From contig JBBIJD010000001.1 in assembly GCA_037446135.1 (NCBI GenBank), forward strand, positions 27,156-91,155: DNA of 64,000 nt. Direction: 5' to 3'. Origin of the DNA: Candidatus Fraserbacteria bacterium (GTDB lineage: Bacteria > Bipolaricaulota > Bipolaricaulia > RBG-16-55-9 > JANLFV01). Each line of letters opens with the position of its first letter. Position 1 is the first letter of the stretch. Under the pieces are notes generated by a model. That model did not search any database and was not told where the DNA came from. It saw nothing but the letters and a program-made list of their open reading frames with translations. The position numbers were made by a program, and so were the translations under genes. Shown one piece after another: positions 14,946 through 37,578 of this stretch.

Positions 14946-15503
14946 ATGGAGATCAATCTGCCGAACCAGCTTACCCTGCTCCGGATCGCCATCATCCCCA
15001 TCTTGATGGTCTTCATCCTCATTCCTCCGGCCTGGGGGAAGATCGTGGCGATCTTCATCTTCGCCATCGCGGCCCTCTCCGATGCCGTCGACGGCTACAT
15101 CGCCCGGAACTGGCGCCAGGTGACGGACTTCGGGAAGTTCGCCGACCCCATCGCGGACAAGCTCTTGATCGCCTCCGCCTTAATCTGCTTCCTCCAGCTC
15201 GGGGAGTTCGGGAGCTGGGGGGCGGCGATCGTCATGACGATCCTCGCCCGGGAGTTCCTCGTCACCGGGTTGAGGATCTTGGCCGTCTCCCAAGACTTAG
15301 TGATCCGGGCCTCCACCTTGGGGAAGCTCAAGACCCTCGCCCAGATCGGGCTGGTCTTCGTCATTTTAGGGAAGAGCTACTTCGACTGGGGCGAGGCCGG
15401 AGAGATCGCAAAAGCGCTGTTTATCGGGCTGGCGCTTTTCTTGGCCCTCGTCTCTGGGGCCGACTATTTCTATCGCAGCCGGAGGCTCTTCCGTCGGCTC
15501 TAG
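14946..15503 (+). CDS. pgsA: CDP-diacylglycerol--glycerol-3-phosphate 3-phosphatidyltransferase
   Basis: Start at MEINLPNQLTLLRIAI. CDP-alcohol phosphotransferase motif DAVDGYIARNW...G...DPIADK. The N-terminal extension in the ORF track is low-complexity and antisense to the asparaginase gene. Confidence 0.9.
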   Translation: MEINLPNQLTLLRIAIIPILMVFILIPPAWGKIVAIFIFAIAALSDAVDGYIARNWRQVTDFGKFADPIADKLLIASALICFLQLGEFGSWGAAIVMTILAREFLVTGLRILAVSQDLVIRASTLGKLKTLAQIGLVFVILGKSYFDWGEAGEIAKALFIGLALFLALVSGADYFYRSRRLFRRL

Positions 15504-18280
15504 CCCCGGACGGAAATGGTCCTAGTCGCTGAGCTGGTATAGCCATCGTTATCGGTGACAGTCAGTGTCACGGGGTAGTCCCCGGCCTTGGGGAAGACCC
15601 ACTTGACGACCTTCCCCTCGGCGTCGGTGGCCTTATCTCCGGTGAAGTCCCATTCATACCTCACGATGTAGCCATCGGGATCGAATGAGGGCGAGCCGTC
15701 GAAGGTCACCTCCTCTCCGGCCTTCGGCTCCGCTGGGGCATAGGTGAAGTCCGCAAAGGGTGGCTGGAAGGTGACGACGATCGGGCGGGGCCGCTCGGCC
15801 GCCCCGAACTCCACTCGGAGGACCTCCCCAGGCTGGAGGAAAAGCTCGAGCCTCGTCGGGGTCGTCGGCTCATAGCGGGCCGGGAGGGTCGCAGGATCGA
15901 GGGAGAGGGAATACCTCCCGGGCAAGAGGGCGGTGAAGACGAACTCGCCCTGCGAGTCAGTGTAGGTGTCCACCAACTCGGCATCGCTCAGGATCAGTCT
16001 TACCCTCGGAAGGCCGGGCTCGCCTTCCTCTCGCCGGCCGTCCCGATTGAGGTCCTTGAAGACCACTCCCAAGATCGCCGCGGCCCTCGCTAGAGGGATG
16101 TCGAGCTTGAGGACCTCTCCCGCCTCCAGTTCGAGCTCGATCGGGAGGGCCACGGCCGGGGCCAGCTCAGCCGGGACCCGGCGGATCGTGAGGAGATACC
16201 TTCCGGGCCAGAGCGGCGGGAAGCGGTAGAACCCGGTCTTCTCCCCGTCGGAGCGGACTGTCACTTCACCGATCTGGAGGAAGACTCCGCTCACACCCGG
16301 CTCGCCGGGATCACGGGCCGAATTGCCGTCCTCATCGATGAAGATGTAGCCCTCGACCCGGGCCTTAGTGAGGATGAACGGGAGGGGGAGGTTGAACCTC
16401 AGGAGGCCTTCCAGGGCCACTCCTAGCTCCGCGGCCCCACTTACTATCGGGAGCGAGGCCCTCGTCTCGATCGCCCCTTCCCAGGCCTGGGACTCGACCG
16501 CCAGCCAGAGGGCGAGCTCGAGTCCCTCCTCGCTCCAGGCCCCGCGCAAGGCCGCGGCCAGGGCCCCCACCCGCAAGGTGAGCCCCGTCTCCAAGCCGAA
16601 GGAGGTGTCAGTGACCATCCCAGAGATGAGGTCATCGGTGAGAGCCTCGCTGAGCCGGAGGGAGAGGAGGGCCCCTCCCCCCGGCCTCAGGCTGAGCAGT
16701 TGCTCATACTGGGAGTATTGATAATCCGTCCCGGTGACGCGATCGCTCTCCCTGGTAGTGCTGGCAGTGAAAGCCAGTGTCGCCTGGCCGATGGGCTGGC
16801 TGAGGCTGGAATAGGCCGTCCTTTCCACCCGATTGACCTCGGGGGAGAGGCCCTCGCTGAACTGCTCCTCGAATTCGGCCCGGAGGCGGAGCGTGGGGAG
16901 CTCCCGCCCGAATGTATGGTAGCCGCTGAAGGAGCTGCGGATGGTGGTGATCCCCGAGACCGTCGGCCTCTGACTCAGGTTCTCCTCGCTTAAGCCAAGT
17001 GAGAGGGTGAGCAAAGGGAGGCTCGGGGAAGAGGTCCGGTAGGCCAGCTCACCGCTGACCCGATCCCCGAGGGTCGGGCCGCGGAGGGCCAGACCGAGCC
17101 GGAGGAGCGAGTCGCCGAAGTAGAACCCCAGGTGGCTGCTGAGAGCCCCGTCAATCCCCTCGGCTGTGCCACTTGCCTCCGCGGTGAGGGTGAGATCCAG
17201 GGCCCCGGCCTGGGCGATGGTGAGCCGGAGGTCATGCCGCTCCGGCGGGCCGGGATAATCCAGAAGATCGAGCTCGAGCCGCTTCAGTCCTGCCTCCGGA
17301 AGGCCGAGGTAGTTGAGCCGCAAGCTGTCGGCGGCCCGCTCGAGGAAGAAGGAGTCCCTAGCGGTGCCCCAGCCGAACAGGAGCCCCGGCTCGAGCCCCG
17401 CGAAGAGGTCGGCGAGATGGAGTTCGAGCCGGAGGGAGCTCTCTTTGCTGATCCGCCCACCGGCGAAGAGGTCGAGTGAGAGGGCCCGCTCTTCAGTGAG
17501 CAGGGGGCTCTCGAGCCGGAACTCGAGCGTCGCCGGTAGCTCGGCGTAGAGTGCCCCGCCGACCGCTTGGGGCGGTGGCGGGAGGAGGCTGATCCAGGCC
17601 GTGGCCTCGGCCTTCACCTCCGGCTTAGTGAGTGAGCTGGCCTTGAGTGTGACCCTGAGCCTCCCTATCGTGGCGGTCGGGAGGACCGTGGCGAGGACCC
17701 CGGCCCTCCGGGCCTCCCCGGGGAGGAGGTCGAGCTGGCCCTCCTCCAGCTCGGCGACGATCTCCGGTGAGCTGGTGACCTCCAGCTTGAAGGAGTCGGG
17801 GAGATTCCCGCGGTTGAGGACCACAAACTCCAGTCGGACCCGCGTGCCGGGATCGGCCTGGACCTCCGGCGGAGGGAAGACCTCGACCGCTGCTTGAGGG
17901 AGGACGATGATGATCGCAGTCGCAGAGGCAGTGATCGAGGGACTGCTCTCGGCTGTGGCCTTAAGCTGGAGGAGGTTCTCGCCCGCCTCGGCCTGAGCGG
18001 TCACGAAGACGGTGATGAAGAGTGCTTGCTCCTCATCGGTTTCCAGCTCGACCGCCGTGGGCGGGGAGACGGGCTCAAGCCCAGGAGAGGGGGAAAGCTC
18101 GAGGAGGAAGCGGTCCGCCGCGCCGCGGTTCCGGATGGAGAAGACATGGGTGACGAATTCCCCTGGTAGGGCCTGCTTCGGCGGGGAGACAGCTTCGAGC
18201 TCCACCTGGGCGAACGCGGCCGCCTGATAGAGCAGGAATAGTGATAAGATGAGGATCAGCCGGCGCATCGCGGGTCGCAC
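15500..18280 (-). CDS. Large secreted/cell-surface multi-domain protein: DUF11/CARDB-like N-terminal repeats, central beta-rich region, two Cna-B/SdrD-B-type Ig-like domains and C-terminal PKD domain
   Basis: 926 aa. Signal peptide MRRLILILSLFLLYQAAAFAQ. C-terminal PKD signature (VTFDGSPSFDPDGYIVRYEWDFGD...YPVTLTVTDNDG). Two carboxypeptidase-regulatory/SdrD-B-like repeats (YIFIDEDGNSARDPGEPGVSGV...; VFKDLNRDGRREEGEPGLPRVRL...). Middle ~350 aa has alternating hydrophobic periodicity compatible with a beta-barrel or beta-sandwich array. Confidence 0.75.
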   Translation of the reverse strand: MRPAMRRLILILSLFLLYQAAAFAQVELEAVSPPKQALPGEFVTHVFSIRNRGAADRFLLELSPSPGLEPVSPPTAVELETDEEQALFITVFVTAQAEAGENLLQLKATAESSPSITASATAIIIVLPQAAVEVFPPPEVQADPGTRVRLEFVVLNRGNLPDSFKLEVTSSPEIVAELEEGQLDLLPGEARRAGVLATVLPTATIGRLRVTLKASSLTKPEVKAEATAWISLLPPPPQAVGGALYAELPATLEFRLESPLLTEERALSLDLFAGGRISKESSLRLELHLADLFAGLEPGLLFGWGTARDSFFLERAADSLRLNYLGLPEAGLKRLELDLLDYPGPPERHDLRLTIAQAGALDLTLTAEASGTAEGIDGALSSHLGFYFGDSLLRLGLALRGPTLGDRVSGELAYRTSSPSLPLLTLSLGLSEENLSQRPTVSGITTIRSSFSGYHTFGRELPTLRLRAEFEEQFSEGLSPEVNRVERTAYSSLSQPIGQATLAFTASTTRESDRVTGTDYQYSQYEQLLSLRPGGGALLSLRLSEALTDDLISGMVTDTSFGLETGLTLRVGALAAALRGAWSEEGLELALWLAVESQAWEGAIETRASLPIVSGAAELGVALEGLLRFNLPLPFILTKARVEGYIFIDEDGNSARDPGEPGVSGVFLQIGEVTVRSDGEKTGFYRFPPLWPGRYLLTIRRVPAELAPAVALPIELELEAGEVLKLDIPLARAAAILGVVFKDLNRDGRREEGEPGLPRVRLILSDAELVDTYTDSQGEFVFTALLPGRYSLSLDPATLPARYEPTTPTRLELFLQPGEVLRVEFGAAERPRPIVVTFQPPFADFTYAPAEPKAGEEVTFDGSPSFDPDGYIVRYEWDFTGDKATDAEGKVVKWVFPKAGDYPVTLTVTDNDGYTSSATRTISVRG

Positions 18281-18357
18281 TCTCCTGGCCGATTCTAGGC
18301 GGACTTAATGGCCGGGAAGAAGGGACTGTAGGATCTGGCTCGGCTTCTTTCGGTCAG

Positions 18358-19371
18358 CTAGCCCCGGGACAGGAGTCCCCGGAGGAGGGCCACATCCTCG
18401 CCGTCGGCATCCCCGTCGTTATCGAAATCGAAGGCCGGCCAATTGTTCTGGACCCCAGCGGTGGTGAGGTTCGCCTCCAGGAGGTCCGGGTCAGCGGCGG
18501 TAAAGGCCCCATCGCCGTCCACATCCTCGTAGAAGCCGTCCCCATCGAGGTCCTGTGGCGGATTCGCCGCTCCTCCGATCGGGATGAGCTTGAGCTCAGG
18601 GACATCGAAAATGAGCTGCCCCGCGGGGAGATAATCGGGACTCCCGAAGTCGAGGACCGCCAGGGCATAGTATCGGCCCGGTGCGGGGCGAGGTGAGGAG
18701 CCCCGAGCTCGGGCCTCCCGGACCGCCCCGGGGAGGATCGGGAACTGGGCCACCTCGATCCGCTCCACTAGTTCGCCCCGAGCATCTAGGACTTGGACCT
18801 CCCCGCTCACCCGGAGGTGGATATCCCCGGTGTTCTCGAAGCCGATGAGGAAAGTGAGCGGGTTGAGCCCGAGCCGCTGGACCCCGGTGATCCGGCCGGC
18901 TCTCGTGCCGGTCCAAGGTGGGGTCTCATAGACCTTGATCCCGAACCGGGGGACCACCATTACCGTCGTCCCGCCCCGCTCTTGCGGCCGGGGCCGCCCC
19001 TCGACCATGATCATCCCCCAATAGGTCCCCTGGACATCGGGCGGGACAGTGATGGTGAACCGGACCTCGCGGGCCTCATCGGGCTTAAGGGAGAAGCTCG
19101 TGGGGGTCACGGTGATCCAGGCGGTATTCGAGCGAGGGAGGCTCCCCGGCTCATAGAAGCGGTGATTCCCCTCGACATCCCGGTCCCAGTCGACGAGGTA
19201 GACCTTGATGTCGTCGGTGATCTGTTCATCGTTGTGGACGAGGAAGGAGAAGGTCCCGCTCCCACCGGCCGGGACCTGGAGGTCGAACTCGATCTGGGAG
19301 ACCTCCAGGGCTGAGGAGGTCAGGAGCACCGCCGCAAGGGTCAAGAGGAGAATAAAGCTCTTCCTCAGCAT
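18358..19371 (-). CDS. Secreted protein with an N-terminal Ig-like domain resembling pilus-chaperone (PapD-like)/DUF916-type domains and a C-terminal dockerin-like Ca-binding repeat pair
   Basis: 337 aa. Signal peptide MLRKSFILLLTLAAVLLTSSA. LEVSQIEFDLQVPAGGSGTFSFLVHNDEQITDDIKVYLVDW parallels the chaperone pattern (RIxY...KSVSLTVxN...PYLVQSW). The C-terminus has two dockerin-type repeats: DLDGDGFYEDVDGDG...DPDLLEANL and DFDNDGDADGEDVALLRGLL. Confidence 0.6.
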   Translation of the reverse strand: MLRKSFILLLTLAAVLLTSSALEVSQIEFDLQVPAGGSGTFSFLVHNDEQITDDIKVYLVDWDRDVEGNHRFYEPGSLPRSNTAWITVTPTSFSLKPDEAREVRFTITVPPDVQGTYWGMIMVEGRPRPQERGGTTVMVVPRFGIKVYETPPWTGTRAGRITGVQRLGLNPLTFLIGFENTGDIHLRVSGEVQVLDARGELVERIEVAQFPILPGAVREARARGSSPRPAPGRYYALAVLDFGSPDYLPAGQLIFDVPELKLIPIGGAANPPQDLDGDGFYEDVDGDGAFTAADPDLLEANLTTAGVQNNWPAFDFDNDGDADGEDVALLRGLLSRG

Positions 19372-19389
19372 CTTCTTAGCTCAGGGGCT

Positions 19390-19418
19390 GGGGAGGGCCT
19401 CTCCCTGCGGCCCTCCCC
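19390..19418 (-). other. Intercistronic stable hairpin (10-bp GC stem GGGGAGGGCC/GGCCCTCCCC) between small-subunit gene A and the downstream chaperone-like gene
   Basis: Perfect inverted repeat seen directly. No T-tract follows on the coding (minus) strand, so it is more likely an mRNA stability or attenuation element than a full terminator. Confidence 0.5.
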
Positions 19419-19436
19419 AGCATTCTACTCCAAGGC

Positions 19437-19958
19437 CTAGGCGCTCGTCAGGGTGTAGACGATCTGGAGGGTATAGCTCCCCGGTGGGTCCTCTTCCCAG
19501 GCGAGGAGGACCCTGAAATGGGTATTCACGAGGATATTATTCCCTCTATTCCCCGCGGCCACCTGGACTTCGTTGATGGTCATCCCGGTATAGTCGGGCT
19601 GGGTCGCGGTCACTCGCGGGTCGGTGGAGGAGGACTTCCACTCCAGATCTTCACAGGGCTTATTCGGGTCCGGCCAAGTCCCAGTGTAAGTCCAAGTCGG
19701 GGCTGTGGCCCAGACATTGACCTGCCAGTTGACATTGCTCCTGACTTTGAGCGTCTGGGCGGGAGAGATCTCCTTATAGCCCCTCTCGTAGTCGTCTGCC
19801 GTCAGGTCCCCGAAGTCGACGAGATTGGGGTCCACCGTCAAGCGGAGAGCCGCTAGCGCGGTCGCTTGAACAGTCGTATTTTGGCTTGTCTGGGCCAAGC
19901 CCGCAAGGCCGAGGAGCAGAACCAAACCTGCTGCCAGAAGCCATCTCAATCTTGCCAT
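19437..19958 (-). CDS. Small secreted beta-rich protein, paralog A of a three-member family (pilin/SCPU-like or WxL-like C-terminal strand)
   Basis: 173 aa. Signal peptide MARLRWLLAAGLVLLLGLAGLAQT. Thr/Ser/Asn-rich. C-terminus PGSYTLQIVYTLTSA matches paralogs B (PGDYSITLEYTATSL) and C (PGDYHVTLTYTITTD). Confidence 0.8.
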   Translation of the reverse strand: MARLRWLLAAGLVLLLGLAGLAQTSQNTTVQATALAALRLTVDPNLVDFGDLTADDYERGYKEISPAQTLKVRSNVNWQVNVWATAPTWTYTGTWPDPNKPCEDLEWKSSSTDPRVTATQPDYTGMTINEVQVAAGNRGNNILVNTHFRVLLAWEEDPPGSYTLQIVYTLTSA

Positions 19959-19984
19959 TCTAGCCTCCTAAATGTGAATCTTTG

Positions 19985-20060
19985 GTGGCTTCGGCAGCCT
20001 GGCAGTCCGTGGAGGACCCACGGCTTTGCGCCCCCATGTCGCCATGGGTTCGCCTTTTCG
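19985..20060 (-). promoter_or_regulatory. GEMM-like (c-di-GMP-I class) riboswitch motif in the 5' UTR of paralog A
   Basis: RNA sense: AAGGCGAACCC-[CCCAUG GCGA CAUGGG]-GGCGCAAAGCC-[CCGUGG guccu CCACGG]...GGCUGCCGAAGCC. Shows the GEMM hallmarks GGCAAACC and GGRCGCAAAGCY around a P1 hairpin with a GNRA tetraloop, then P2. The same architecture occurs twice upstream of paralog C with compensatory changes in the P1 stem. Confidence 0.7.
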
Positions 20061-20075
20061 GTCCACTTAAACAAT

Positions 20076-20110
20076 ATTATACAAAGGCTGAGCCGAAGGT
20101 CGTCTGTAAT
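20076..20110 (-). promoter_or_regulatory. Candidate promoter (-10 TATAAT on minus strand) driving the riboswitch-paralog A transcript
   Basis: Minus-strand TATAAT (plus 20076-20081 ATTATA) lies immediately upstream of the riboswitch. The -35 is weak. Confidence 0.4.
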
Positions 20111-20137
20111 GTGGATCACATTCCCCGGCCGGGGGCT

Positions 20138-20190
20138 TGACACCCATAAAATAAAGAGAGGCCCCGGGCTCGAGTCATGAGCCCGGGGCC
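20138..20190 (-). terminator. Rho-independent terminator after paralog B (perfect 10-bp GC stem plus T-tract on the minus strand)
   Basis: GGCCCCGGGC...GCCCGGGGCC stem at 20160-20190. On the minus strand it is followed by CTCTCTTTATTTTATGGG. Sits 20 nt after the stop of 20212..20754. Confidence 0.75.
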
Positions 20191-20211
20191 CCGAAATGAG
20201 CGACTAACCGG

Positions 20212-20754
20212 TTACAGAGAGGTTGCGGTGTATTCCAGGGTGATGCTGTAATCTCCGGGGATGTCCTGTTCGTCCGAGGTATACTTGTAGGCCATATGGA
20301 AGTAGGCCGCGCCCGGCTTCTCCCCGGTCCCGGCCTTCATCATCTGATTGAATCCCGGGAAGCTGACATAGCTCCCCTGGTAGCCGCTGACATTCCCCTC
20401 GACTTTGGCGACCTTCCAGGCGAAGTCAGCGAGGATGTCCCCTTCAAAGCCCGGAGGGGTGGTAGCCTCGACGGCCTGGACGGCCAGGACATAGCCGTTA
20501 TGGCAGTTGGTCCTGAGGGAGACGATGTTCCCTTCGGTGTCCTCTAGGATCTGATCCGGCCCGGTGATCGTCCCCAGGAAGACATCCTGGTGGACATTGA
20601 GGGTGATCCAACAGTTGGCATTCCAGTAGACCGTGGTCTTCCCGCCGTCCCCGGCCCCGAGGGAGATCGTCCCCCAGAGGGCCGCGATCGCTAATGCCGC
20701 GAGGGTCGCTACCTTCAGGGTCTTTCCTATTCTCTTCATCGGTGTTACCTCCAT
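20212..20754 (-). CDS. Small secreted beta-rich protein, paralog B
   Basis: 180 aa. Signal peptide (MKRIGKTLKVATLAALAIAALWG). C-terminal PGDYSITLEYTATSL. No riboswitch upstream; instead an 11-bp-periodic TGGAAr repeat array. Confidence 0.8.
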   Translation of the reverse strand: MEVTPMKRIGKTLKVATLAALAIAALWGTISLGAGDGGKTTVYWNANCWITLNVHQDVFLGTITGPDQILEDTEGNIVSLRTNCHNGYVLAVQAVEATTPPGFEGDILADFAWKVAKVEGNVSGYQGSYVSFPGFNQMMKAGTGEKPGAAYFHMAYKYTSDEQDIPGDYSITLEYTATSL

Positions 20755-20825
20755 CTTCTCTTCCTAGGTCAGGTTTCTGACCTTTCGTCTCGCCTCGGAG
20801 TTTAAGTCACCCCCGCTGGAGGGTC

Positions 20826-20878
20826 GATGGAAGCGGGCTGAAAAGTCGGAGGAAAGCGGCTGGAAATTCCATGGAAAT
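20826..20878. promoter_or_regulatory. Array of five direct repeats (T/A)G(G/A)AA(A/G) at exact 11-bp spacing; candidate OmpR-family response-regulator binding site upstream of paralog B
   Basis: GATGGAAG cgg GCTGAAAAG tcg GAGGAAAG cgg CTGGAAAT tcc ATGGAAAT. Repeat cores start at 20828, 20839, 20850, 20861 and 20872. A related 4-repeat array lies at 22182-22220. Confidence 0.55.
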
Positions 20879-20895
20879 CCCAGAGACTGGAGCTA

Positions 20896-22158
20896 TTAGG
20901 GCTTCTTAGCAGGGAGGGCCCTGGCCCCTCCGAGCCGCTTTGCCCGGTAGAGGGCCCGGTCGGCCTGCTCGATCAGCTCGTCCGGCGAGGCCCCGTCCTC
21001 GGGGAAGCCGGCCACTCCGGCGCTGAAGCTGGCCCTGAAGGGCTCGGATTGCTCAGGGGCTTGGAACCGCTGCTCATGGAACTCCCCTTGGAGCCTGGTC
21101 AGGGCCGCCACGGCCCGGGGCTTGATGGTCTCGGGGAGGATGAGGGCGAACTCATCCCCGCCGTAGCGGGCGGGTAGGTCGCTCTTCCGTCCCTTGGACT
21201 TGATGAGCTCGGCCAGGGCCTTCAGGACGGAGTCGCCCATCCGATGGCCATAGCGGTCGTTGATCGCCTTGAACCGGTCGAGGTCGAGGAGGGCCAGGGA
21301 GAAGACCCTTCCATACCTTCTGCTCCGCTCGAGGGTGCAGCGGAGCTTCTCCTGGAAGGCCCGGTGGTTGTAGAGCCCGGTCAGGCCATCGAGGTCCGCC
21401 AGCTCGGTGAGCACCCGGTTCCGCTCGAGCCGGGCGGCGATCCGGGCGATCAGCTCCTCAGGGTAGAACGGCTTAGTGATGTAGTCGTCCGCCCCGGCCT
21501 CCAGGCCCCGGACCTTGGTCGCCACATCGCCCCTCCCGGTGAGGAAGAAGATCGGGAGCTTCTGGAACTCCACCTCCCGGCGGAGGGAGGCGCAGAGCTC
21601 CAGTCCGGTCAGCTTCGGCATCTCGATGTCCAGGAGCAAGAGGTCCGGCTTGAACTCCCTCAGGGTTGAGAGCGCCTCCGTCGGGTCTTGCAAGGCCTTG
21701 GTGGCGAACCCCGCTTGGCGGAGATGCCCCCCGACGAGCTCCAAGAGGTGAGGATCATCATCGACGATCGCGATCCTCAAGCGGTCGCCTCCTCCCTTTG
21801 GCTCTTGCTCAAGCTCGAACTTGAGCCCAAGCGCCGCTTCGGCCCGCTGGAGCTCCTCCTCCAGCTCGCGAAGGAGGGCCCGGAGCCTTCCCAGTTCCGG
21901 GGCGGCCAGCGGCCTGTTCTGAAGCTGGAGGGCCTCTTCCATCTCCTGAGCCAGCTCGGAGAGCCGAGGGTAGCCGTAGGAGCCGCCGCTCCCCTTGAGC
22001 CGATGGGCCCGCTCCAAGAGGGCCGCCATGGGGGCTTCAGCCTGAGGATCGGCCTCGAGGTCATTGAGCAACTGTCCGAAGAGGTTGAGGGCCCCGCGGA
22101 CCTCCTCGAGGTAGAGCCTTCGCAAGCCCTCCAATCCTTCTTCCATAGGTTCCACCAT
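20896..22158 (-). CDS. Hpt-REC-GGDEF signalling protein (diguanylate cyclase with receiver and N-terminal histidine phosphotransfer domain)
   Basis: 420 aa. Hpt HxxKG motif (ERAHRLKGSGGSYG). REC (IAIVDDDP...LLLDIEMP...DDYITKPF). GGDEF with intact active site RYGGDEF and a putative I-site (RRYGRV...). Confidence 0.9.
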   Translation of the reverse strand: MVEPMEEGLEGLRRLYLEEVRGALNLFGQLLNDLEADPQAEAPMAALLERAHRLKGSGGSYGYPRLSELAQEMEEALQLQNRPLAAPELGRLRALLRELEEELQRAEAALGLKFELEQEPKGGGDRLRIAIVDDDPHLLELVGGHLRQAGFATKALQDPTEALSTLREFKPDLLLLDIEMPKLTGLELCASLRREVEFQKLPIFFLTGRGDVATKVRGLEAGADDYITKPFYPEELIARIAARLERNRVLTELADLDGLTGLYNHRAFQEKLRCTLERSRRYGRVFSLALLDLDRFKAINDRYGHRMGDSVLKALAELIKSKGRKSDLPARYGGDEFALILPETIKPRAVAALTRLQGEFHEQRFQAPEQSEPFRASFSAGVAGFPEDGASPDELIEQADRALYRAKRLGGARALPAKKP

Positions 22159-22181
22159 TGGGAAGGATAAGGCCCTCAGGC

Positions 22182-22220
22182 TGGAATATCGATGGAAGTG
22201 GGCTGGAAATCTGATGGAAG
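22182..22220. promoter_or_regulatory. Four TGGAA(T/G/A) direct repeats at 11-bp spacing upstream of the Hpt-REC-GGDEF gene
   Basis: cTGGAAT atc gATGGAAG tgg gcTGGAAAT ctg ATGGAAG. TGGAA cores at 22182, 22193, 22204 and 22215, located 25-65 nt upstream of the GGDEF start codon and just after the RR stop. Confidence 0.5.
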
Positions 22221-22227
22221 CGGGGGG

Positions 22228-22905
22228 CTACCCCGCCAACTTATACCCGAACCCGCGGACGGTGAGGATCAGTTCGGGGTTCTGCGGGTCCCGCTCGATC
22301 CGCTTGCGGAGGAGGTAAATGTATTTTTGCACATCGCCGGGGCGGGCGAAGCTGCTCCCCGGCCAGAGATGGTCGATGATCTCCCGATCGGAGAAGACCC
22401 TCCCCCGCTCTGAAGCTAAGAGGAGCAGGAGCTCATACTCCTTGGGGGAGAGGCTCACCACCTCTCCTCGGACCTGGACGGTCTTGCTCTTATCGTCGAT
22501 GGTGAGCGGCCCGACCTCAATGAGCGCCTCTTTCGGGGCCGCCCCGGCCCGCCGGAGGACCGCCTCGATCCGGAGGGCCACCTCCATGAGGTCGAACGGC
22601 TTCCTGATATAGTCGTCGGCCCCGAGGGTGAACCCCTGGATCGTATCTATCGGCGAGTCCCGGGCGGTGAGCATCAGCACTGGGGTGGAGCTGCCTTCCC
22701 GGATCCGCCGGAGCACCTCCCAGCCATCCATCCCCGGGAGCATCACATCGAGGAGGACCAGGTCCGGCCGCTCCTTAGCGAAGGCCTCCAGGGCCTTTGG
22801 GCCGTCCTCGGCGGTGAGGACCTCATACCCGCGGGAGCTGAGGAAGGCTCGGAGGAGCCTCAAGATATCAGGGTCGTCATCGACGAGGAGGATCTTCTTA
22901 GCCAT
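22228..22905 (-). CDS. OmpR-family response regulator (REC + winged-helix)
   Basis: 225 aa. KILLVDDDP...LVLLDVMLPGMDGW...DDYIRKPF, plus trans_reg_C (LSPKEYELLLLLASERGRVFSDREIIDHLW...TVRGFGYKLA). About 60% identity by eye to the second RR at 39014. Confidence 0.95.
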   Translation of the reverse strand: MAKKILLVDDDPDILRLLRAFLSSRGYEVLTAEDGPKALEAFAKERPDLVLLDVMLPGMDGWEVLRRIREGSSTPVLMLTARDSPIDTIQGFTLGADDYIRKPFDLMEVALRIEAVLRRAGAAPKEALIEVGPLTIDDKSKTVQVRGEVVSLSPKEYELLLLLASERGRVFSDREIIDHLWPGSSFARPGDVQKYIYLLRKRIERDPQNPELILTVRGFGYKLAG

Positions 22906-25075
22906 CCTGATCAGTCAGTCCTCCGTCCAGCCCGAGCTTGAGCCAGCTCTTGGAGAGCGGGAGCCTGACGGTGAACTTCGTCCCCGCATTCGGCTTGCTC
23001 TCGACCCTGATCTCCCCGCCGTGACGGTCGATCGTGGCCTTGACGATCGCCAGCCCCAGGCCGGTCCCCGTGGCCTCCCGGACATAGGGGTTGGTGGAGC
23101 GGAAGAACCTGGTGAAGAGCCGGCCGAGCTCCTCCGCGTCCATCCCGATCCCGGTATCCGTGACCTCGACGATCGCCTCCCCGGCCACGGTGTCGGCCCG
23201 GGCCCGGAGGCTCACCTTCCCCTCCTTGGTGTATTTGATGGCATTGGAGAGGAGGTTGGCGAAGGCCCGAGCGAGGTAGTCGGCATCACCTTTGACCTGG
23301 AGCCCTTCCTCCAGCTCGACCTCCAGGGCCAATCCCTTCTCCCGGGCATTGACGGCGAAAGTGGCGGCCACATCCCTCAAGATTTCGTCGAGCGCGAGGT
23401 CCCTTAGCTCGATCTTCCGCTCCCCCGACTCGAGCCGCTCGATGTCCAGGAGGTCGTTGACCAGTTTGGTCAGGCGGTCGGCGTTCCGGGAGATAACCTG
23501 GAGGAACTCCTCCTGGGCCGGATTGAGGGGGCCGGTCTCCCCGGCCAAGAGGAGGTCGGCATACCCTTTGATCGAGGTGAGCGGGGTCCGAAGCTCATGG
23601 GAGACGGTGGCGAGGAACTCGGCCTTCAGTTGCTCCAGTCGCTTCTGAGCGGTGATATCCCGCATCATCCCTTGATAGCCCACCAGCCGCCCCGCGCTGT
23701 CCTTGATGGCCACACTGATCTCGTGGACCGTCCTCATTGAGCCGTCCTTGTGCTTATACGCTAGTTCCATGTCTACATAGCCGTCCCGCGCCAGTCGCCG
23801 GTGGAACTCCTCCCGCTGGGCCGGGTCGGCATAATTCTCGCAGAGGTCCATCCGGATCAGCTCCTCTTCCCTGTAGCCGAGAAGCTTCCTCACCGCCGGG
23901 TTGACATCGACGAGTCGGCCTTGAGAATCGCAGACATAGATCACATCGGCGCTATTCTCGAAGAGGTTGCGGTAGCGCTCCCCTGAGCGGCGGAGTTCCT
24001 CCTCAGCTTGCTCGCGTCTAGCAAGCATCTCATTGATCGAGCGAGCCAGGCTCGCCAGCTCATCGCCCCCTTTGGAGGGGAGGCGGGCCGAGAGGTCGCC
24101 GCTCGCCGTGACCCGGCGGACAGCCCGCTCGAGTCGGGCCAGCTTAGCCAGGACACCCCTCTCGAGCAGGAGGAGGGCGGTGGCCGTGAAGACCAGGCCG
24201 ATGGTAGAGAGGGCCAACATGAAGTAGTTCAAGCTCGCCAGCCCTTGGCTGTAGATGGTCCGCGGGAGGTCCACCCTCAAGATGAGGGCCGGCTGGCCGT
24301 AGATATCTCGGAGCAGGGCATAGCCGGCGACCCGCTCCCGGTCGAGCCGCTGGACAGGGAGCGTCGTCGCCCCTGTCCCCGCTAAGAGGGCCGTGCGGGC
24401 CGCGGCGAAGGCCGGGTCTTCTAGGGCTAGTCCTGGCTCATCAACTCGCCGGAATGCTAGTGAGAGGTCCGTCAACTCCGCCAGTTGAGCGACCTTAGCA
24501 GCATCGAGGTAGCGGCCCATGATGAGCGAGCCCCGGCTCGGGCCGGTCTTCTCGCTGGTGAGGATCGGCCTGGCGGCCAAGAGGAGTGGCCCCTCCGCTA
24601 GAAGGAGGAGCCCAGTCAGCCCCTCTTTGGGAGGCTCCTCGCGGGGCCGGAGGAGCGGGCTCTCAGGGGTGAGACTGTTCAAGAGGCCCTCTGGGACTGG
24701 CACCTCCCTTCTCTCCTGGAGGTCGAAGGCCTTGGCGAAGACGATCCTCCCCGAGGAGTGGACGAAGACCATCAAGTTCAAGCCGAGCTCGCTGAAGGTC
24801 TGATCGACGAGGTTGGAGCGGATATACTCCGGATTGGCGTCCTCGATGAAGGCATAGGTATCGTCCCAACCGGCCCAATCGCCGACGAGGGCGCTCAGCT
24901 TGGCCTGGTCATCGGCTAGCGCGTTCAGGGTTCGCTCGACCTCCCTTCGGGTGGCCTGCTCTTCCAGGGCCAGGAAGCCCCCGAGGAAGAGCGACCGGAG
25001 GACGAGATACATGATGGCTACTGAGCAGAGGAGCACTGAGCCGATAGTGATCAGCGTCTTCTTCCGTAGGGTCAT
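22898..25075 (-). CDS. Sensor histidine kinase with extracytoplasmic sensor domain, HAMP, PAS, HisKA and HATPase_c
   Basis: 725 aa. N-terminal TM segment, ~270-aa periplasmic region, a second TM, HAMP-like linker, PAS (DVIYVCDSQGRLVDVNPAV), H-box (ATVSHELRTPLTSI), and N/G boxes (LSNAIKYT, DTGIGM, GTGLGLAIV). Confidence 0.9.
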   Translation of the reverse strand: MTLRKKTLITIGSVLLCSVAIMYLVLRSLFLGGFLALEEQATRREVERTLNALADDQAKLSALVGDWAGWDDTYAFIEDANPEYIRSNLVDQTFSELGLNLMVFVHSSGRIVFAKAFDLQERREVPVPEGLLNSLTPESPLLRPREEPPKEGLTGLLLLAEGPLLLAARPILTSEKTGPSRGSLIMGRYLDAAKVAQLAELTDLSLAFRRVDEPGLALEDPAFAAARTALLAGTGATTLPVQRLDRERVAGYALLRDIYGQPALILRVDLPRTIYSQGLASLNYFMLALSTIGLVFTATALLLLERGVLAKLARLERAVRRVTASGDLSARLPSKGGDELASLARSINEMLARREQAEEELRRSGERYRNLFENSADVIYVCDSQGRLVDVNPAVRKLLGYREEELIRMDLCENYADPAQREEFHRRLARDGYVDMELAYKHKDGSMRTVHEISVAIKDSAGRLVGYQGMMRDITAQKRLEQLKAEFLATVSHELRTPLTSIKGYADLLLAGETGPLNPAQEEFLQVISRNADRLTKLVNDLLDIERLESGERKIELRDLALDEILRDVAATFAVNAREKGLALEVELEEGLQVKGDADYLARAFANLLSNAIKYTKEGKVSLRARADTVAGEAIVEVTDTGIGMDAEELGRLFTRFFRSTNPYVREATGTGLGLAIVKATIDRHGGEIRVESKPNAGTKFTVRLPLSKSWLKLGLDGGLTDQDG

Positions 25076-25187
25076 CTATCTGCTTCTGGCCTCTCGGCCT
25101 GTATCGAGAAGGAATAATAAACCAATAAAGCCGGCCATTCAAGGCCGGCTATCCAACTCTGCTCTTACTCCTGGGCAAGCAGGGCTC

Positions 25188-25709
25188 TCAATCGGTGGTG
25201 ATGGTGTAGGTCAGGGTCACATGGTAGTCTCCCGGCCTATGATGCTCGCGGTCGAAGAGGATGAGGTAGTCCACCTCCACCTTTTGGCGCCCGCTCGGGC
25301 CATGAGCGATGACCTGATCGGAGTTGCTGACCGGGCGATAGGACTCGCTCCCCACGCGGAGCTGGAAGTCGCTGAGCGGCTTGGTGTAGCGGCCGTCATA
25401 GCTCCTTCCGAGGTCGGGCTCGGCGGCCCGGACCGCCAGCCTCCAGTGGACATTGCTGGCGGCGATGAGGGTGAGCGCCCTAGGGATCTCGCGGTAGCCC
25501 CGCTCCAGGTCCGCTTCGCTCGGCTGAGGGAGCACAAATGTCGTCGTGACGGCCTGGTCGGTCTGGCCCTCGAGTGAGAGGCGGGCGAAAGGGAGGACAG
25601 TCCAAGAGATCGTCGTCCTAGCGGAGTCACCTGTCCCTAGAGCCTGGGCACTGAGGAATAACGAGAGACCGAGAAGAAGCAAGCCGGAGATGACCGCTCT
25701 TCTTGCCAT
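25188..25709 (-). CDS. Small secreted beta-rich protein, paralog C
   Basis: 173 aa. Signal peptide MARRAVISGLLLLGLSLFLSAQA. C-terminal PGDYHVTLTYTITTD. Preceded by tandem GEMM-like riboswitch motifs. Confidence 0.8.
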   Translation of the reverse strand: MARRAVISGLLLLGLSLFLSAQALGTGDSARTTISWTVLPFARLSLEGQTDQAVTTTFVLPQPSEADLERGYREIPRALTLIAASNVHWRLAVRAAEPDLGRSYDGRYTKPLSDFQLRVGSESYRPVSNSDQVIAHGPSGRQKVEVDYLILFDREHHRPGDYHVTLTYTITTD

Positions 25710-25710
25710 C

Positions 25711-25790
25711 CTTCGGCAGCCCGGCGATCCCCGAGGGACCCGTAGCTTTGCGCCCCCACCTTGCGATGGGTTTGCCCTTATCGGGATGCG
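25711..25790 (-). promoter_or_regulatory. GEMM-like (c-di-GMP-I class) riboswitch motif, gene-proximal copy of a tandem pair
   Basis: RNA sense: AAGGGCAAACCC-[AUC GCAA GGU]-GGGGGCGCAAAGCUACGGG...GGGCUGCCGAAGG-AUG. The P1 stem CCCAUC/GGUGGG differs from the other copies (CCCGCC/GGCGGG and CCCAUG/CAUGGG) by compensatory changes, and all three loops are GNRA-type (GCAA, GAGA, GCGA). Confidence 0.7.
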
Positions 25791-25801
25791 TCCCTTCCTC
25801 G

Positions 25802-25905
25802 CCCTTCGGCAGCCCGGCTGCCCTTCACCTCCTTCCCCAATCAGCCAGTGTTAGGGCCCGTGGCTTTGCGCCCCCGCCTCTCGGCGGGTTTGCCCTTATC
25901 GGAGC
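25802..25905 (-). promoter_or_regulatory. GEMM-like (c-di-GMP-I class) riboswitch motif, distal copy of the tandem pair
   Basis: RNA sense: CCGAUAAGGGCAAACCC-[GCC GAGA GGC]-GGGGGCGCAAAGCCACGGGCCC...GGGCAGCCGGGCUGCCGAAGGG. Lies immediately downstream of the promoter at 25916-25945. Confidence 0.7.
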
Positions 25906-25915
25906 TCAGCGAAGG

Positions 25916-25945
25916 TATTATACACCGAGTGAGCGGGCTTGACAA
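25916..25945 (-). promoter_or_regulatory. Near-consensus sigma70 promoter (minus strand TTGTCA-17 nt-TATAAT) for the tandem riboswitch-paralog C transcript
   Basis: Minus-strand reading: ggcTTGTCAagcccgctcactcggtgTATAATacc. Overlaps the 3' end of the HD-GYP gene. Confidence 0.6.
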
Positions 25946-27471
25946 GCCCCTTCGGGCGGGGAAGGTCCTTTCGGGCTCAGATCCAGATTGTATCCCCTCT
26001 CGAAGAGCCGGAGGCAGGCCTCGCCAGCTTGGGGGTCGTAGAGCCGCCCCTTGTGCTTGGCGATCTCTCCCAAGGCCTCCTCGATGGCATGGGCCGGGCG
26101 GTAGGGCCGGTGAGAGGCCACCGCCTCCACCACATCGGCCACCGCTAGAATTCGGGCCTCGAGCATGATCTCTTCCCCCTTGAGCCCCCGGGGGTAGCCC
26201 GAGCCGTCGAGCCGCTCGTGGTGCTGGAGGACGATCTCAGCCACCGGCCAGGGGAAGTCGATCTGCCTCAAGACCTCATAGCCGGCCTGGGGATGGACCC
26301 GCACCAGCCCCAACTCGGCCGGATTGAGCCTCCCCGGCTTGCTCAGGATCTCCGCGGGGATATAGATCTTCCCGATGTCGTGGACCTGAGCGGCCATCCT
26401 GAGCCCGGCGATCCGGTCCTGAGGGAGGCCCATCTCCTGGGCGATCGCGCAGGCCAGCTCCGCCACCCGCCGCTGGTGCCCCGCGGTGTAGGGGTCCCGG
26501 ACCTCGACGGTGGTGGCGAGGACATCGACCATCTGCTCCAGGAGCCGCTCCAGCCGCTCATGACTCTCCCGGAGGGCCTCAAACAGCCGGAGGTTCTCCA
26601 AGGCCACAGCGGTGGCATTGGCCAAAGCCTCGAGGAGCTGGCAGTCCTCGGAGGTGAAGGCATTCAACTCCTGGCTCTCGGCGTTGAGGGCCCCGAGGAC
26701 CCGCTCCCCCGCCTTCAAGGGGACGCAGAGCTCAGAGCGGTTGGCGAACCGCCCCCCGACGAACCGTGGGTCCTTGGTCACATCCGGGAGGAGGATCATC
26801 TCCCCAGAGCGGGCCACGGCGGGGATGATCCCCCGCTCGCTAGCGAGGGGGAACTCCTCCGGGCCGGGGGGCCGTCCAAGAGTGTGGGCGACACAGATGA
26901 GCCGCTCGGCCTTCTCGTCCACTAGGAAGAGGCCGCAGTCCTCGAGCCCGAGGACCTCCCGGGCCGCCTCCACCGCCGCTTGGGCGATCTCCTCCTCGCT
27001 CCGGGAGAGGATCAACCTTCGGCCCAGGGCGTAGATCCCGGCCAGGCCCCGCTCGAGCCGCTTCCGCTCGGTGATGTCCCTCAGGATCGTCTGGAGGCCG
27101 ACGACCTTCCCCGCCTGCCTGATCGGGTTGCTCCGGTAGTCCGCGATCCTCGGCCCCTTGGGGGTGGTGAGCTCGATCTCCCCTTGGATCGGCTCCCCTC
27201 GGCTTATCCGGGCGAGCTCCTCGAGCAGCCGGGGATGGTAGCGCTCGGGGACGAACTCGAGCATATTCTTCCCGACCAGGTCCTCCTTGCGGAAGCCATA
27301 TTCTGCAGCGGCCCGGTTCACGGCCGTCACATTCCCTTCAAGGTCGAAGGTGACAATGACATCCCTAGCGTCCTCGAAGAGCTCGCGATAGGCCCCTTCC
27401 GCCCGCTCAAGCTCAGCCACCCGCAGCCGGAGCTGCTCGAGCTCTAACCCCTCTCGTGCCTCCGGTCTCAA
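25918..27471 (-). CDS. PAS-GAF-HD-GYP protein (c-di-GMP phosphodiesterase, HD-GYP class)
   Basis: 517 aa. HD motif (VHDIGKI) and HHERLDGSGYP (the GYP signature). N-terminal PAS and GAF regions. Confidence 0.9.
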   Translation of the reverse strand: MRPEAREGLELEQLRLRVAELERAEGAYRELFEDARDVIVTFDLEGNVTAVNRAAAEYGFRKEDLVGKNMLEFVPERYHPRLLEELARISRGEPIQGEIELTTPKGPRIADYRSNPIRQAGKVVGLQTILRDITERKRLERGLAGIYALGRRLILSRSEEEIAQAAVEAAREVLGLEDCGLFLVDEKAERLICVAHTLGRPPGPEEFPLASERGIIPAVARSGEMILLPDVTKDPRFVGGRFANRSELCVPLKAGERVLGALNAESQELNAFTSEDCQLLEALANATAVALENLRLFEALRESHERLERLLEQMVDVLATTVEVRDPYTAGHQRRVAELACAIAQEMGLPQDRIAGLRMAAQVHDIGKIYIPAEILSKPGRLNPAELGLVRVHPQAGYEVLRQIDFPWPVAEIVLQHHERLDGSGYPRGLKGEEIMLEARILAVADVVEAVASHRPYRPAHAIEEALGEIAKHKGRLYDPQAGEACLRLFERGYNLDLSPKGPSPPEGACQARSLGV

Positions 27472-37495: not shown

Positions 37496-37578
37496 TTTAG
37501 CACAATTGTAAGGGCCACAATTGGGGCTGTCAAGGGGCTTTGCCGGAGGGGCGCTATCTCTGTTAAACTTGAAAGAAG

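Follow-up and report, generated by a model that had tools for sequence, protein, structure and literature searches.

The closest described systems to the locus analysed here are chaperone-usher pili (archaic/sigma Csu and CupE, alternate CFA/I), the TLP-1 fibrils, the WxL gene clusters and riboswitch-controlled pili. Among the last, a class II c-di-GMP riboswitch lies upstream of pilA1 in Clostridioides difficile, and GEMM RNAs typically occur as tandem aptamers and in surface-structure regulons. TLP-1a and TLP-1b are environmental fibrils from pond water, described by CryoSeek (PDB 9IKJ/9IKK) without a gene or an organism, and the closest relative predicted for them comes from a Flavobacteriales bacterium; the N-terminal strand of TLP-1 is disordered in the monomer and polymerisation takes place by donor-strand exchange (PMC11494351). 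Firmicutes have WxL clusters, in which genes for small and large WxL proteins accompany one for WxLIP (DUF916-DUF3324), and for which insertion of a DUF916 hairpin into WxL has been predicted (PMC10599100). Bipolaricaulota, the phylum to which most loci of the kind studied here belong, have a diderm envelope with a toga, and a small number of pili has been observed on strain J31 (10.1101/2025.11.21.689855). A genome study of Bipolaricaulota found no fimbriae or pili genes (PMC6092417).

In the window, which is the whole stretch of 64,000 nucleotides that was analysed, positions 15500-27471 encode, in the direction of transcription, an HD-GYP phosphodiesterase, the small secreted protein S1, a histidine kinase, a response regulator, a diguanylate cyclase, the small proteins S2 and S3, a chaperone and a large protein (Table 1). 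An earlier note had listed these genes together with RNA and DNA elements; scans for ORFs, repeats and terminators and against Pfam and Rfam found every feature on that list, all on the minus strand, and corrected the size of the large protein from the 926 aa given there. The note had also proposed an undescribed c-di-GMP-governed surface-fibre locus, which was borne out as a conserved fibre locus, and no published description of it was found in the literature. We consider it reasonably probable that the product of the locus is a pilus assembled by donor-strand exchange with the aid of a chaperone, of a chaperone-usher-like type that has diverged deeply, and that c-di-GMP riboswitches gate its expression.

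Table 1. Features of the locus in the order of transcription, with positions in the window.
Feature	Position	Strand	Evidence
Sigma-70-like promoter of S1 transcript, TTGTCA-17-TATAAT	25917-25945	-	11/12 consensus matches
PAS-GAF-HD-GYP c-di-GMP phosphodiesterase gene	25918-27471	-	Pfam HD_5 3.5e-42, GAF 4.7e-21, PAS_4 4.4e-18
Aptamer 1 (c-di-GMP-I type), first of tandem pair, 25-nt insertion in P2 loop	25804-25903	-	RF03167, 76.2 bits, E 2.7e-16
Aptamer 2 (c-di-GMP-I type), second of tandem pair	25711-25785	-	RF03167, 74.4 bits
S1, secreted pilin-like subunit, 173 aa, own transcript	25188-25709	-	
Intrinsic terminator after S1	25129-25150	-	8-bp GC-rich stem, T-rich tail
CHASE4-HAMP-PAS-HisKA-HATPase histidine kinase	22898-25075	-	Pfam CHASE4 5.6e-45, HisKA 2.5e-23, HATPase_c 7.4e-31
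OmpR-family response regulator	22228-22905	-	Pfam Response_reg 9.2e-32, Trans_reg_C 7.4e-21
Four 11-bp-phased (C/T)TTCCA direct repeats 5' of cyclase gene	22179-22224	-	TRF period 22, score 69; three exact TTCCA-N6-TTCCA
Hpt-REC-GGDEF diguanylate cyclase	20896-22158	-	Pfam GGDEF 1.1e-44, Response_reg 2.7e-29, Hpt 5.5e-13
About five 11-bp-phased TTCCA-like repeats 5' of S2	20817-20882	-	TRF periods 11 and 22
S2, secreted pilin-like paralog	20212-20754	-	Family HMM 4.9e-40, paralog alignment
Strong intrinsic terminator closing kinase-regulator-cyclase-S2 unit	20158-20192	-	14-bp stem, 12 G-C pairs, T run
TATAAT box ahead of aptamer 3	20076-20081	-	
Aptamer 3 (c-di-GMP-I type), leader of S3-chaperone-large protein operon	19989-20063	-	RF03167, 61.0 bits
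S3, pilin-like subunit, 173 aa, first gene of structural operon	19437-19958	-	Family HMM 7.5e-51
Intercistronic hairpin S3/chaperone	19387-19421	-	Perfect 13-bp stem, 9-nt loop
Secreted protein, 337 aa: PapD-like two-domain periplasmic chaperone with C-terminal type I dockerin	18358-19371	-	
Large protein, 922 aa from ATG at 18268 (ORF to 18280)	15500-18268	-	Pfam

S1, S2 and S3 are true paralogs, with pairwise identities of 23-34%, and by the family HMM they are the sole members of their family within the window. S3 has the ribosome-binding site AGGAGG 5 nt upstream; the start of S2 is more likely at 20739, giving 175 aa, the length at which the ORF is called in loci L001 and L059. Scans of S1-S3 and 34 family members against Pfam and NCBIfam gave no match, and neither the Fimbrial nor the SCPU models of these collections reached even E 0.1 on the window proteins. 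In the PDB the family profile matched only TLP-1b (E 0.002) and TLP-1a (E 0.0095), a marginal sequence link. Structures were predicted for S1 and the chaperone, and in the Foldseek search with the pilin fold TLP-1a/b came out on top with a probability of 1.00, followed by CsuA/B. Furthermore, hhalign aligned the pilin family with 12 E. coli pilins over 157 columns at a moderate probability (88%, E 2.9e-6). In the monomer model, the N-terminal strand of the mature protein adopts no structure, as reported for TLP-1. The small proteins match pilins of the chaperone-usher pathway in their incomplete Ig fold and N-terminal donor strand. The orphan TLP-1 fibrils are most likely what the subunits of the locus resemble most closely: in both, the protomers are secreted with a signal peptide and have an N-terminal strand that is disordered in the monomer and acts, or in the locus pilins would act, as the donor strand in the fibre. 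They differ in that the TLP-1 protomer has ~237 aa whereas the locus pilins have ~145 mature residues, with identities of 11-18%, and the n+4 donor geometry of TLP-1 cannot be inferred for the latter.

The fold and profile of the 337-aa protein are those of a periplasmic PapD-like chaperone with two Ig-like domains. Against seven E. coli fimbrial chaperones, hhalign gave an alignment of 199 columns at a moderate probability (85%, E 6.4e-6), in which the near-invariant K146 falls on the Lys of an IKL(F/Y)YRP-type motif, a candidate counterpart of PapD Lys112, and no Arg stands opposite PapD Arg8; in PapD, these two cleft residues bind the C-terminus of the subunit. Homologs of the protein carry the JGI name 'P pilus assembly chaperone PapD', and the PapD_N and PapD_C models of Pfam and NCBIfam found nothing among the window proteins at even E 0.1. 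In its tail, residues 281-331 matched Dockerin_1 with 24.0 bits (cut-off 22.9) and contain the duplicated calcium-binding repeat, and the chaperone family profile matched the CelS dockerin (1.6e-5). To our knowledge, no other periplasmic chaperone with a dockerin has been described.

The combination of small secreted proteins, a tandem-Ig protein and a large multidomain surface protein also resembles the composition of WxL clusters, with which the locus shares a predicted insertion of a partner strand. It might accordingly be read as a non-polymerising surface complex of WxL type, in which the small modules would be bound to the wall or surface and held by the two-Ig partner, a WxLIP-like protein anchored by its dockerin instead of a transmembrane helix, and the large protein would bind a host or substrate. 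The small proteins contain an SN(V)xWxL motif and a YTLT-like motif at the end, and distant chaperone homologs show sub-threshold matches to WxLIP_HBD and WxLIP_PGBD, with one BIG-family member reaching 1.1e-7 for WxLIP_PGBD. However, WxL, WxLIP_PGBD and WxLIP_HBD had no Pfam match on any window protein, structural comparison of the small proteins leads to polymerising donor-strand pilins and not to WxL domains, and profile homology to E. coli pilins and chaperones. In addition, the locus belongs to a diderm host, its large protein has a probable outer-membrane barrel, and it has neither an LPXTG protein, a transmembrane helix as anchor nor a peptidoglycan-anchoring context. We regard a WxL-type complex as improbable and retain the reading of the small proteins as pilins.

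The large protein consists of a signal peptide, two Ig-like domains, a middle domain of ~410 aa (residues ~228-640), two SdrD_B/transthyretin-like domains and a PKD domain, and this whole architecture is kept across phyla. The middle domain is rare, with 102 relatives among 1.84 billion cluster representatives, and its position in the protein is constant. It is probably an outer-membrane beta-barrel, because Pfam barrel models match a few distant members of its family: Porin_4 scored above the gathering score in 3 of 48, including P0198 (46 bits) and P0203 (33.7 bits, in the homologous region), and weak OMP_b-brl matches were also found among distant members. The Usher model PF00577 appeared in a single distant member, P0177, with 20.4 bits, below the cut-off of 27.1. 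On the window's own large protein, no curated barrel model of Pfam matched and Usher gave no match at E up to 0.1; the comparison of the middle domain with five E. coli ushers by hhalign gave 2.5%, i.e., no homology, and its profile found no relative in the PDB.

The genes for pilin(s), chaperone and large protein are syntenic in at least 25 of 52 loci, mostly from Bipolaricaulota and including MAGs labelled Omnitrophota, Planctomycetales and Cytophagales/Flavobacteriales. The structural genes thus stay together in the synteny comparison that the earlier note had suggested, and a chance neighbourhood of unrelated genes was rejected because of this synteny. The hairpin between S3 and the chaperone gene is conserved in L002, L059 and L061, and comparable GC-rich hairpins are present in L014, L023, L024 and L010. 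In the Bacteroidota loci, the small ORFs align with the Bipolaricaulota pilins over 28 columns only and had no match to TLP-1 in the PDB; blastp of the N-terminal TLP-1b fragment against the ORFs of all loci gave weak matches only, the best with E 0.11.

The operon is composed like that of chaperone-usher pili, with pilin gene(s), an intercistronic hairpin, a two-Ig-domain periplasmic chaperone and an outer-membrane protein of ~900 aa. The likeness extends to the fold and profile of the chaperone, to the profile of the pilins and their fold with a free N-terminal strand, and to the order of periplasmic domains, barrel and two beta-sandwich domains in the large protein. In contrast to chaperone-usher systems, the components of the locus have no Pfam-level membership, the barrel protein cannot be recognised as an usher and has distant relatives matching Porin_4, and its probable barrel is flanked by domains of the NEW3/Ig_VWA7 and SdrD_B/PKD types; a dockerin on the chaperone, a toga-bearing, deep-branching host and control by c-di-GMP riboswitches set the locus further apart. 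The earlier statement that nothing here matches a canonical chaperone-usher set still holds for the usher, as no true PF00577 protein is detectable, but not for the chaperone, which is PapD-like by fold and profile. Its corollary, an unknown assembly route with nothing chaperone-usher-like, had to be given up, since the small proteins have the features of donor-strand pilins and the layout of the large protein around its probable barrel is usher-like.

We propose that the large protein is the assembly and anchoring platform of the fibre. The pilins and chaperone may also make a fibre to which the large protein contributes no pore, being either a barrel-anchored adhesin of inverse-autotransporter-like kind that displays SdrD_B and PKD domains or a mere anchor or base; the subunits would then cross the membrane by another route or self-polymerise in the manner of TasA fibres or archaeal bundling pili. 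A barrel followed by Ig-like domains is indeed the inverse-autotransporter layout, SdrD_B and PKD are typical of surface adhesins, and the lack of usher homology by hhalign points the same way. We nevertheless find this unlikely, given that a barrel-sized domain of 410-450 aa is far larger than the 12-stranded inverse-autotransporter barrel and that the IAT_beta and autotransporter models of Pfam found no match at E up to 0.1 on the large protein and eight homologs. The two Ig-like domains N-terminal to the barrel are comparable to the usher N-terminal domain, synteny of its gene with those for chaperone and pilins is strict across phyla, the architecture of the large protein is constant, and the loci contain no other conserved candidate pore. 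A platform role for the large protein agrees better with these observations.

The three GEMM-like motifs of the earlier note proved to be real aptamers, with scores above the Rfam gathering score of RF03167 (59; c-di-GMP-I clan) and strong covariation: in the aptamer alignment 96% of cells are paired, 20 of 21 pairs have double changes, and none of 500 shuffles reached the observed covariation. Of the three small secreted paralogs, two (S1 and S3) have them immediately 5', and among the 45 aptamers of the related loci 38 have a pilin gene within the next 400 nt (23 of 27 loci). The tandem pair is conserved in L059, L061 and L010, and aptamer 3 has orthologs in L002, L059 and L061. Aptamer 2 ends 1 nt ahead of the S1 start codon, and its 3'-terminal GAAGG doubles as the ribosome-binding site; this abutting geometry is also found in 10 other loci.

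From their sequence, we infer that the window aptamers bind c-di-GMP. All 54 aligned aptamers have GCAAAGC where the RF03167 consensus is GCGAAG; we take the variable position to be the intercalating A47 of the Vc2 structure, and as this equivalent is kept, the binding site looks canonical. Such conservation argues against the possibility that the aptamers sense another ligand and that the GGDEF and HD-GYP genes are nearby by coincidence, as does the presence of c-di-GMP aptamers of other families in the loci: canonical RF01051 aptamers precede pilin genes at the equivalent position in L034, and the unrelated c-di-GMP-II riboswitch RF01786 precedes the pilin instead in L041. Another ligand would suit the better fit of all three window aptamers, and of most related ones, to RF03167 than to RF01051, RF03167 being a variant model defined for an altered binding site, and would also suit the finding that signalling genes are not kept beside the pilus genes outside close relatives; yet the cluster of this lineage has a cyclase gene inserted. 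On balance, a ligand other than c-di-GMP seems very improbable to us.

In the related loci, expression platforms are supported by compensatory changes, and two opposite-looking platforms occur in one cluster. In the tandem S1 aptamers the sequence points to an OFF switch, because P1 overlaps the ribosome-binding site and start codon. The analysis of related loci, from which alone the S3 polarity is drawn, points to an ON switch in the S3 leader; RNAfold gave no clear alternative structure for the window's own S3 leader. As in C. difficile pilA1, c-di-GMP would directly gate the mRNA of a pilus subunit. Unlike pilA1, the locus would specify a donor-strand pilus with a chaperone and not a type IV pilus, the pairing of aptamer and pilin gene is phylum-wide in Bipolaricaulota, and two opposite-looking expression platforms are found within a single cluster.

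The translations of the signalling genes have the expected motifs: the H-box SHELRTP of the kinase and the receiver Asp residues are present, the GGDEF motif of the cyclase is intact and accompanied by an RxxD I-site, and the HD and HHERLDGSGYP motifs of the HD-GYP protein are intact. The complete make, sense and break circuit that had been claimed for the locus did not survive comparison with relatives. Kinase, regulator and cyclase genes stand beside pilus genes only in L001 and the close relatives L059-L061, and the HD-GYP gene, the break arm, is lineage-specific and missing from L059/L060, which are 92% identical. For these reasons, we rejected the view that the pilus system proper includes the signalling genes. 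S2 has no aptamer ahead of it, and a TTCCA repeat array lies upstream instead. TTCCA-N6-TTCCA occurs eight times in the window, all inside the two arrays, against 2.4 expected, and none of 100 shuffles reached eight; the arrays are a putative operator for the OmpR-type regulator.

Considering these results, we propose the following model. S1-S3 would be exported via Sec, and in the periplasm (toga space) the PapD-like chaperone would cap them by donor-strand complementation. During polymerisation, the following subunit's N-terminal strand would take the place of the chaperone strand, giving a fibre of the TLP-1a/b kind. The 922-aa protein, not detectably usher-related in sequence, would provide an outer-membrane barrel as the channel or base for assembly and anchoring of the fibre; the Ig-like domains that it has in the periplasm would act like the N- and C-terminal domains of an usher, and the chaperone may be kept close to this platform by its dockerin tail. 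In this lineage, the CHASE4 kinase would phosphorylate the OmpR-type regulator, which may bind the TTCCA arrays and raise transcription of the Hpt-REC-GGDEF gene and S2, and c-di-GMP would be made by the cyclase and broken down by the HD-GYP enzyme. Binding of c-di-GMP to the S3-leader aptamer would turn expression on, the 3' strand of P1 otherwise hiding the Shine-Dalgarno sequence, as suggested by related loci, and binding to the tandem S1 aptamers would turn it off. Through these opposite switches, a change in c-di-GMP would alter both the amount of fibre and its subunit make-up. A more far-reaching proposal, which we offer tentatively and hold at somewhat less than even chances, is that the locus belongs to a separate ancient branch of donor-strand-exchange pili that includes TLP-1 and uses a PapD-like chaperone with a porin-derived, non-usher barrel, and in which, in Bipolaricaulota, oppositely wired riboswitches on the pilin mRNAs set how much fibre is made and which subunit is incorporated.

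If the locus does encode such a pilus, it would be the first identified pilus system of Bipolaricaulota, a phylum whose first isolate, J31, shows pili (10.1101/2025.11.21.689855), and it gives the TLP-1 fibrils a concrete class of candidate genes. The apparently opposite platforms of several c-di-GMP aptamers would make it a compact natural case of the control of paralogous subunits of a single structure. Furthermore, chaperone-assisted donor-strand assembly would reach a deep-branching, toga-bearing lineage with an outer-membrane component that is not a recognisable usher, and this extension to Bipolaricaulota would bear on the age and modularity of the chaperone-assisted pathway.

The genes of the locus all lie on the minus strand of the window (G+C about 64%), and every item the earlier note had listed there, namely the genes, aptamers, repeat arrays, hairpin and terminator, was borne out in the sequence, in Pfam and in Rfam (see the table). 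At its 3' end, the large-protein gene has a convergent CDP-alcohol phosphatidyltransferase gene as neighbour. The translations have an intact GGDEF with RxxD I-site, HD...HHERLDGSGYP, H-box and receiver aspartates. The three small secreted proteins S1, S2 and S3 are mutually paralogous (23-34% identity), with no further family members anywhere in the 64 kb. The only Rfam matches in the window are three RF03167 aptamers (c-di-GMP-I clan), and a near-consensus promoter, TTGTCA-17-TATAAT, lies upstream of the tandem pair. Two arrays of 11-bp-phased TTCCA repeats, one upstream of the cyclase gene and one upstream of S2, are putative binding sites of the regulator; TTCCA-N6-TTCCA occurs eight times in the window against 2.4 expected, never outside the arrays, and 0 of 100 shuffles reached eight. 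From the positions of aptamers, promoter, terminators, hairpin and arrays, there appear to be four transcription units: the HD-GYP gene; aptamer-aptamer-S1; kinase-regulator-[array]-cyclase-[array]-S2; and aptamer-S3-hairpin-chaperone-large protein. Similar hairpins were also found in related loci.

Features of the locus in the window, with selected features of related loci (L-numbers)
Feature	Coordinates	Strand	Basis or remark
PAS-GAF-HD-GYP gene	25918-27471	-	Pfam
Aptamer 1, tandem pair with aptamer 2	25804-25903	-	RF03167, 76.2 bits
Aptamer 2	25711-25785	-	RF03167, 74.4 bits; 3' end one base before S1 start codon
S1, 173 aa, signal peptide	25188-25709	-	Pfam, no family
Terminator after S1	25129-25150	-	clean
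CHASE4-HAMP-PAS-HisKA-HATPase kinase	22898-25075	-	Pfam
OmpR-type regulator	22228-22905	-	Pfam
Hpt-REC-GGDEF (cyclase)	20896-22158	-	Pfam
S2	20212-20754	-	probable start 20739 (175 aa, the call made in L001 and L059)
Terminator after S2	20158-20192	-	clean
Aptamer 3, single	19989-20063	-	RF03167, 61.0 bits; S3 start codon 30 nt downstream
S3, 173 aa	19437-19958	-	
Hairpin between S3 and chaperone gene	19387-19421	-	13 bp, perfect
337-aa chaperone, signal peptide, Dockerin_1 tail	18358-19371	-	Pfam
Large protein, 922 aa: Ig-like N-terminus, SdrD_B x2, PKD	15500-18268	-	Pfam
L041 riboswitches	6992-7075 and 8530-8612		
Ribbon-helix-helix-like gene, ~105 aa	L005:883-1206, L006:4941-5264, L007:9657-9977, L008:9677-9997		
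Same, c-di-GMP-I aptamer upstream	L027:11164-11478, L030:11039-11344		

Elsewhere in the window, 37573-39685 (+) holds a further histidine kinase and OmpR-type regulator pair; this regulator is 59% identical to that of the locus, so cross-talk at the TTCCA arrays would be possible. Upstream of the locus lie genes for a 222-aa secreted protein lacking a family match (27703-28371, -) and a protein of 435 aa that matches P-loop GTPases weakly (28476-29783, -). At 54001-56000, G+C drops to 0.569 (elsewhere about 0.64) with a strongly negative GC skew (-0.206), and Rfam found no RNA gene there.

When a 34-member profile of the small proteins was compared with the whole PDB, the only significant matches were 9IKK (TLP-1b, E 0.002) and 9IKJ (TLP-1a, E 0.0095), pond-water fibrils solved by cryo-EM as donor-strand exchange polymers, whose producer and genes are unknown (PMC11494351). 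At these marginal scores TLP-1 is the nearest solved relative rather than a proven member of the same family. The S1 model (pLDDT 87, body above 90) leaves residues 28-41, just past the signal peptide, without structure, and Foldseek ranked TLP-1a/b top at probability 1.00, with CsuA/B next. Profile alignment of the family with 12 pilins of E. coli gave 88% (E 2.9e-6) over 157 columns that take in the C-terminal G-x-Y...Y strand. These three independent methods converge on a pilin fold in which the N-terminal strand is free, that is, on donor-strand pilins, which would polymerise by donor-strand exchange. Tandem two-domain small subunits of 323-328 aa, resembling tip or adaptor subunits, occur in four related loci (L017:2468-3439, L027:8498-9469, L030:8469-9449, L032:6825-7811).

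We identify the 337-aa protein as a PapD-like chaperone carrying a dockerin. In its AlphaFold model (39-sequence alignment, pLDDT 93), two beta-sandwich domains precede a helical tail, and a profile made from seven chaperones of E. coli K-12 matched its family at 85% probability (E 6e-6, 199 columns). The near-invariant K146 aligns within an IKLFYRP-type motif, and several homologs carry the JGI label 'PapD'. The tail scores above the Dockerin_1 gathering score and matches solved dockerins; it is missing from the 257-268-aa homologs and from every homolog outside the phylum, and would have a docking role. Cluster-adjacent ORFs with dockerin-like C-termini in other Bipolaricaulota (L009:11092-12480, L017:9325-10743) suggest that such tails are a general anchoring device of the phylum.

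The large protein consists of a signal peptide, two NEW3/Ig_VWA7-type domains, about 410-450 unassigned residues, two SdrD_B/CarboxypepD_reg domains and an optional PKD domain. This layout is kept from Bipolaricaulota through to MAGs labelled as Omnitrophota, Planctomycetales, Bacillota and Bacteroidota. Profile search found no PDB relative of the middle domain (residues ~228-640), and among 1.84 billion cluster representatives its profile matched only 102 proteins, nearly all of 900-1000 aa with the domain in constant position. In Pfam scans of the most distant members, the Porin_4 gathering score was exceeded (P0198, 46 bits; P0203, 33.7 bits, inside the homologous stretch), with Porin_4 matches in 3 of the 48 members scanned; below threshold, there were OMP_b-brl matches and one Usher match (P0177, 20.4 bits vs 27.1). 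Transitively, via these distant members, the middle domain is predicted to be an outer-membrane beta-barrel, probably a pore or anchor. With the domain so read, the large protein would have the domain order of an usher but no detectable usher homology; compared directly at profile level, five ushers of E. coli gave a negative result (2.5%).

Scanning a single genome for each species yielded 52 loci, and at least 25 of them keep the order small subunit(s)-chaperone-large protein; in Bacteroidota loci the order is unchanged, with additional pilin-like genes downstream of the large gene. The earlier note had also proposed a "make, sense and break" c-di-GMP circuit as part of the system, but it is not part of what is conserved: the window and its close relatives L001, L059/L060 (92% S1 identity) and L061 (84%) are the only ones with kinase, regulator and cyclase inside the cluster, and L059/L060 lack the HD-GYP gene, S1 there coming directly after homologs of the upstream genes for the 435-aa and 222-aa proteins. 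The circuit is therefore a recent, lineage-specific acquisition, and the riboswitch-pilin link is ancestral; more distant S1-like genes are solitary, with an aptamer attached. A parallel cluster is present in five Bacteroidota MAGs (L045, L046, L050, L052, L053). It comprises 190-210-aa pilin-like genes, a homolog of the chaperone and a large protein (~900-970 aa) with the same domain layout, with two more small genes behind it and response-regulator genes nearby; no aptamers were found in these clusters. In some lineages, though not in the window, a ribbon-helix-helix-like protein (RHH_1 below cut-off) is encoded beside the pilus genes.

With the window's three aptamers as the basis of a covariance model, 45 confident aptamers were detected across 27 related loci, every one on the coding strand, with strong covariation; in 38 of the 45 (23 loci) a small-subunit gene begins within 400 nt downstream. 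Rfam agrees on these aptamers, and canonical RF01051 aptamers precede pilin genes in L034. In L041, a Bacillota-labelled MAG, a c-di-GMP-II riboswitch (RF01786, 63.5 bits) lies directly 5' of a small-subunit gene and a class I aptamer just downstream of the chaperone gene, so that one cluster holds two riboswitch classes. This unrelated riboswitch at a pilin gene provides independent evidence that c-di-GMP would be the signal for the gene family. All 54 aligned aptamers contain GCAAAGC, where the RF03167 consensus is GCGAAG; we take this position to be the intercalating A47 of the Vc2 structure, and the ligand-binding site thus looks canonical. The P2 loop of aptamer 1 has a 25-nt insertion (25835-25860, -) containing GGAAGGAGGUGA, a strong Shine-Dalgarno-like string.

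Two expression platforms were recognized. In type A (window aptamer 2, L011, L013, L015, L016, L018-L020, L022, L059, L061), the aptamer ends 1 nt from the AUG, and the start codon and codons 2-3 pair with bases immediately 5' of the aptamer (10 contiguous pairs in L013; compensatory changes among L020, L013 and L022). As the P1 3' strand contains the GAAGG ribosome-binding site, ligand-stabilised P1 should block initiation, an OFF switch. In type B (L014, L023, L024 and the second aptamer of L013, L018 and L020), CACC(U/C)CC is the 3'-side strand extending P1 and the exact anti-Shine-Dalgarno to the downstream GGAGGUG, so ligand should free the ribosome-binding site, an ON switch. The type B aptamer heads the entire pilin-chaperone-large protein operon in L014, L023 and L024. 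The window S3 leader has a loose likeness to type B (GUGG/CCAC) and its folding was uninformative on polarity, which can thus be assigned only by analogy.

MAGs of Candidatus Bipolaricaulia/Acetothermia encode identical or nearly identical proteins, and the taxon labels of several MAGs ('Thermotogae', 'Fraserbacteria') may be unreliable. Bipolaricaulota are diderms with a toga-like outer membrane and an S-layer, and a few pili were visible on the first isolate (10.1101/2025.11.21.689855); an earlier genome study did not find pili/fimbriae genes (PMC6092417). In full-text literature searches, we found no paper describing pilus genes in Bipolaricaulota or linking donor-strand pili to c-di-GMP riboswitches.

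The evidence, computational throughout and with moderate homology probabilities, shows the parts list, folds, synteny and aptamer-pilin linkage. It also shows that pilins and chaperone are akin, at the profile level, to chaperone-usher components, and the predicted fibre would work like a chaperone-usher pilus. Since chaperone and pilin were recognized at fold and profile level only and no usher was found, the locus is not placed in any known chaperone-usher clade. Fold and cluster logic are common to the Firmicutes WxL/WxLIP clusters, but their defining domains are absent here (PMC10599100). The locus may represent a separate, ancient pilus branch with a non-usher pore, to which the TLP-1 fibrils may also belong.
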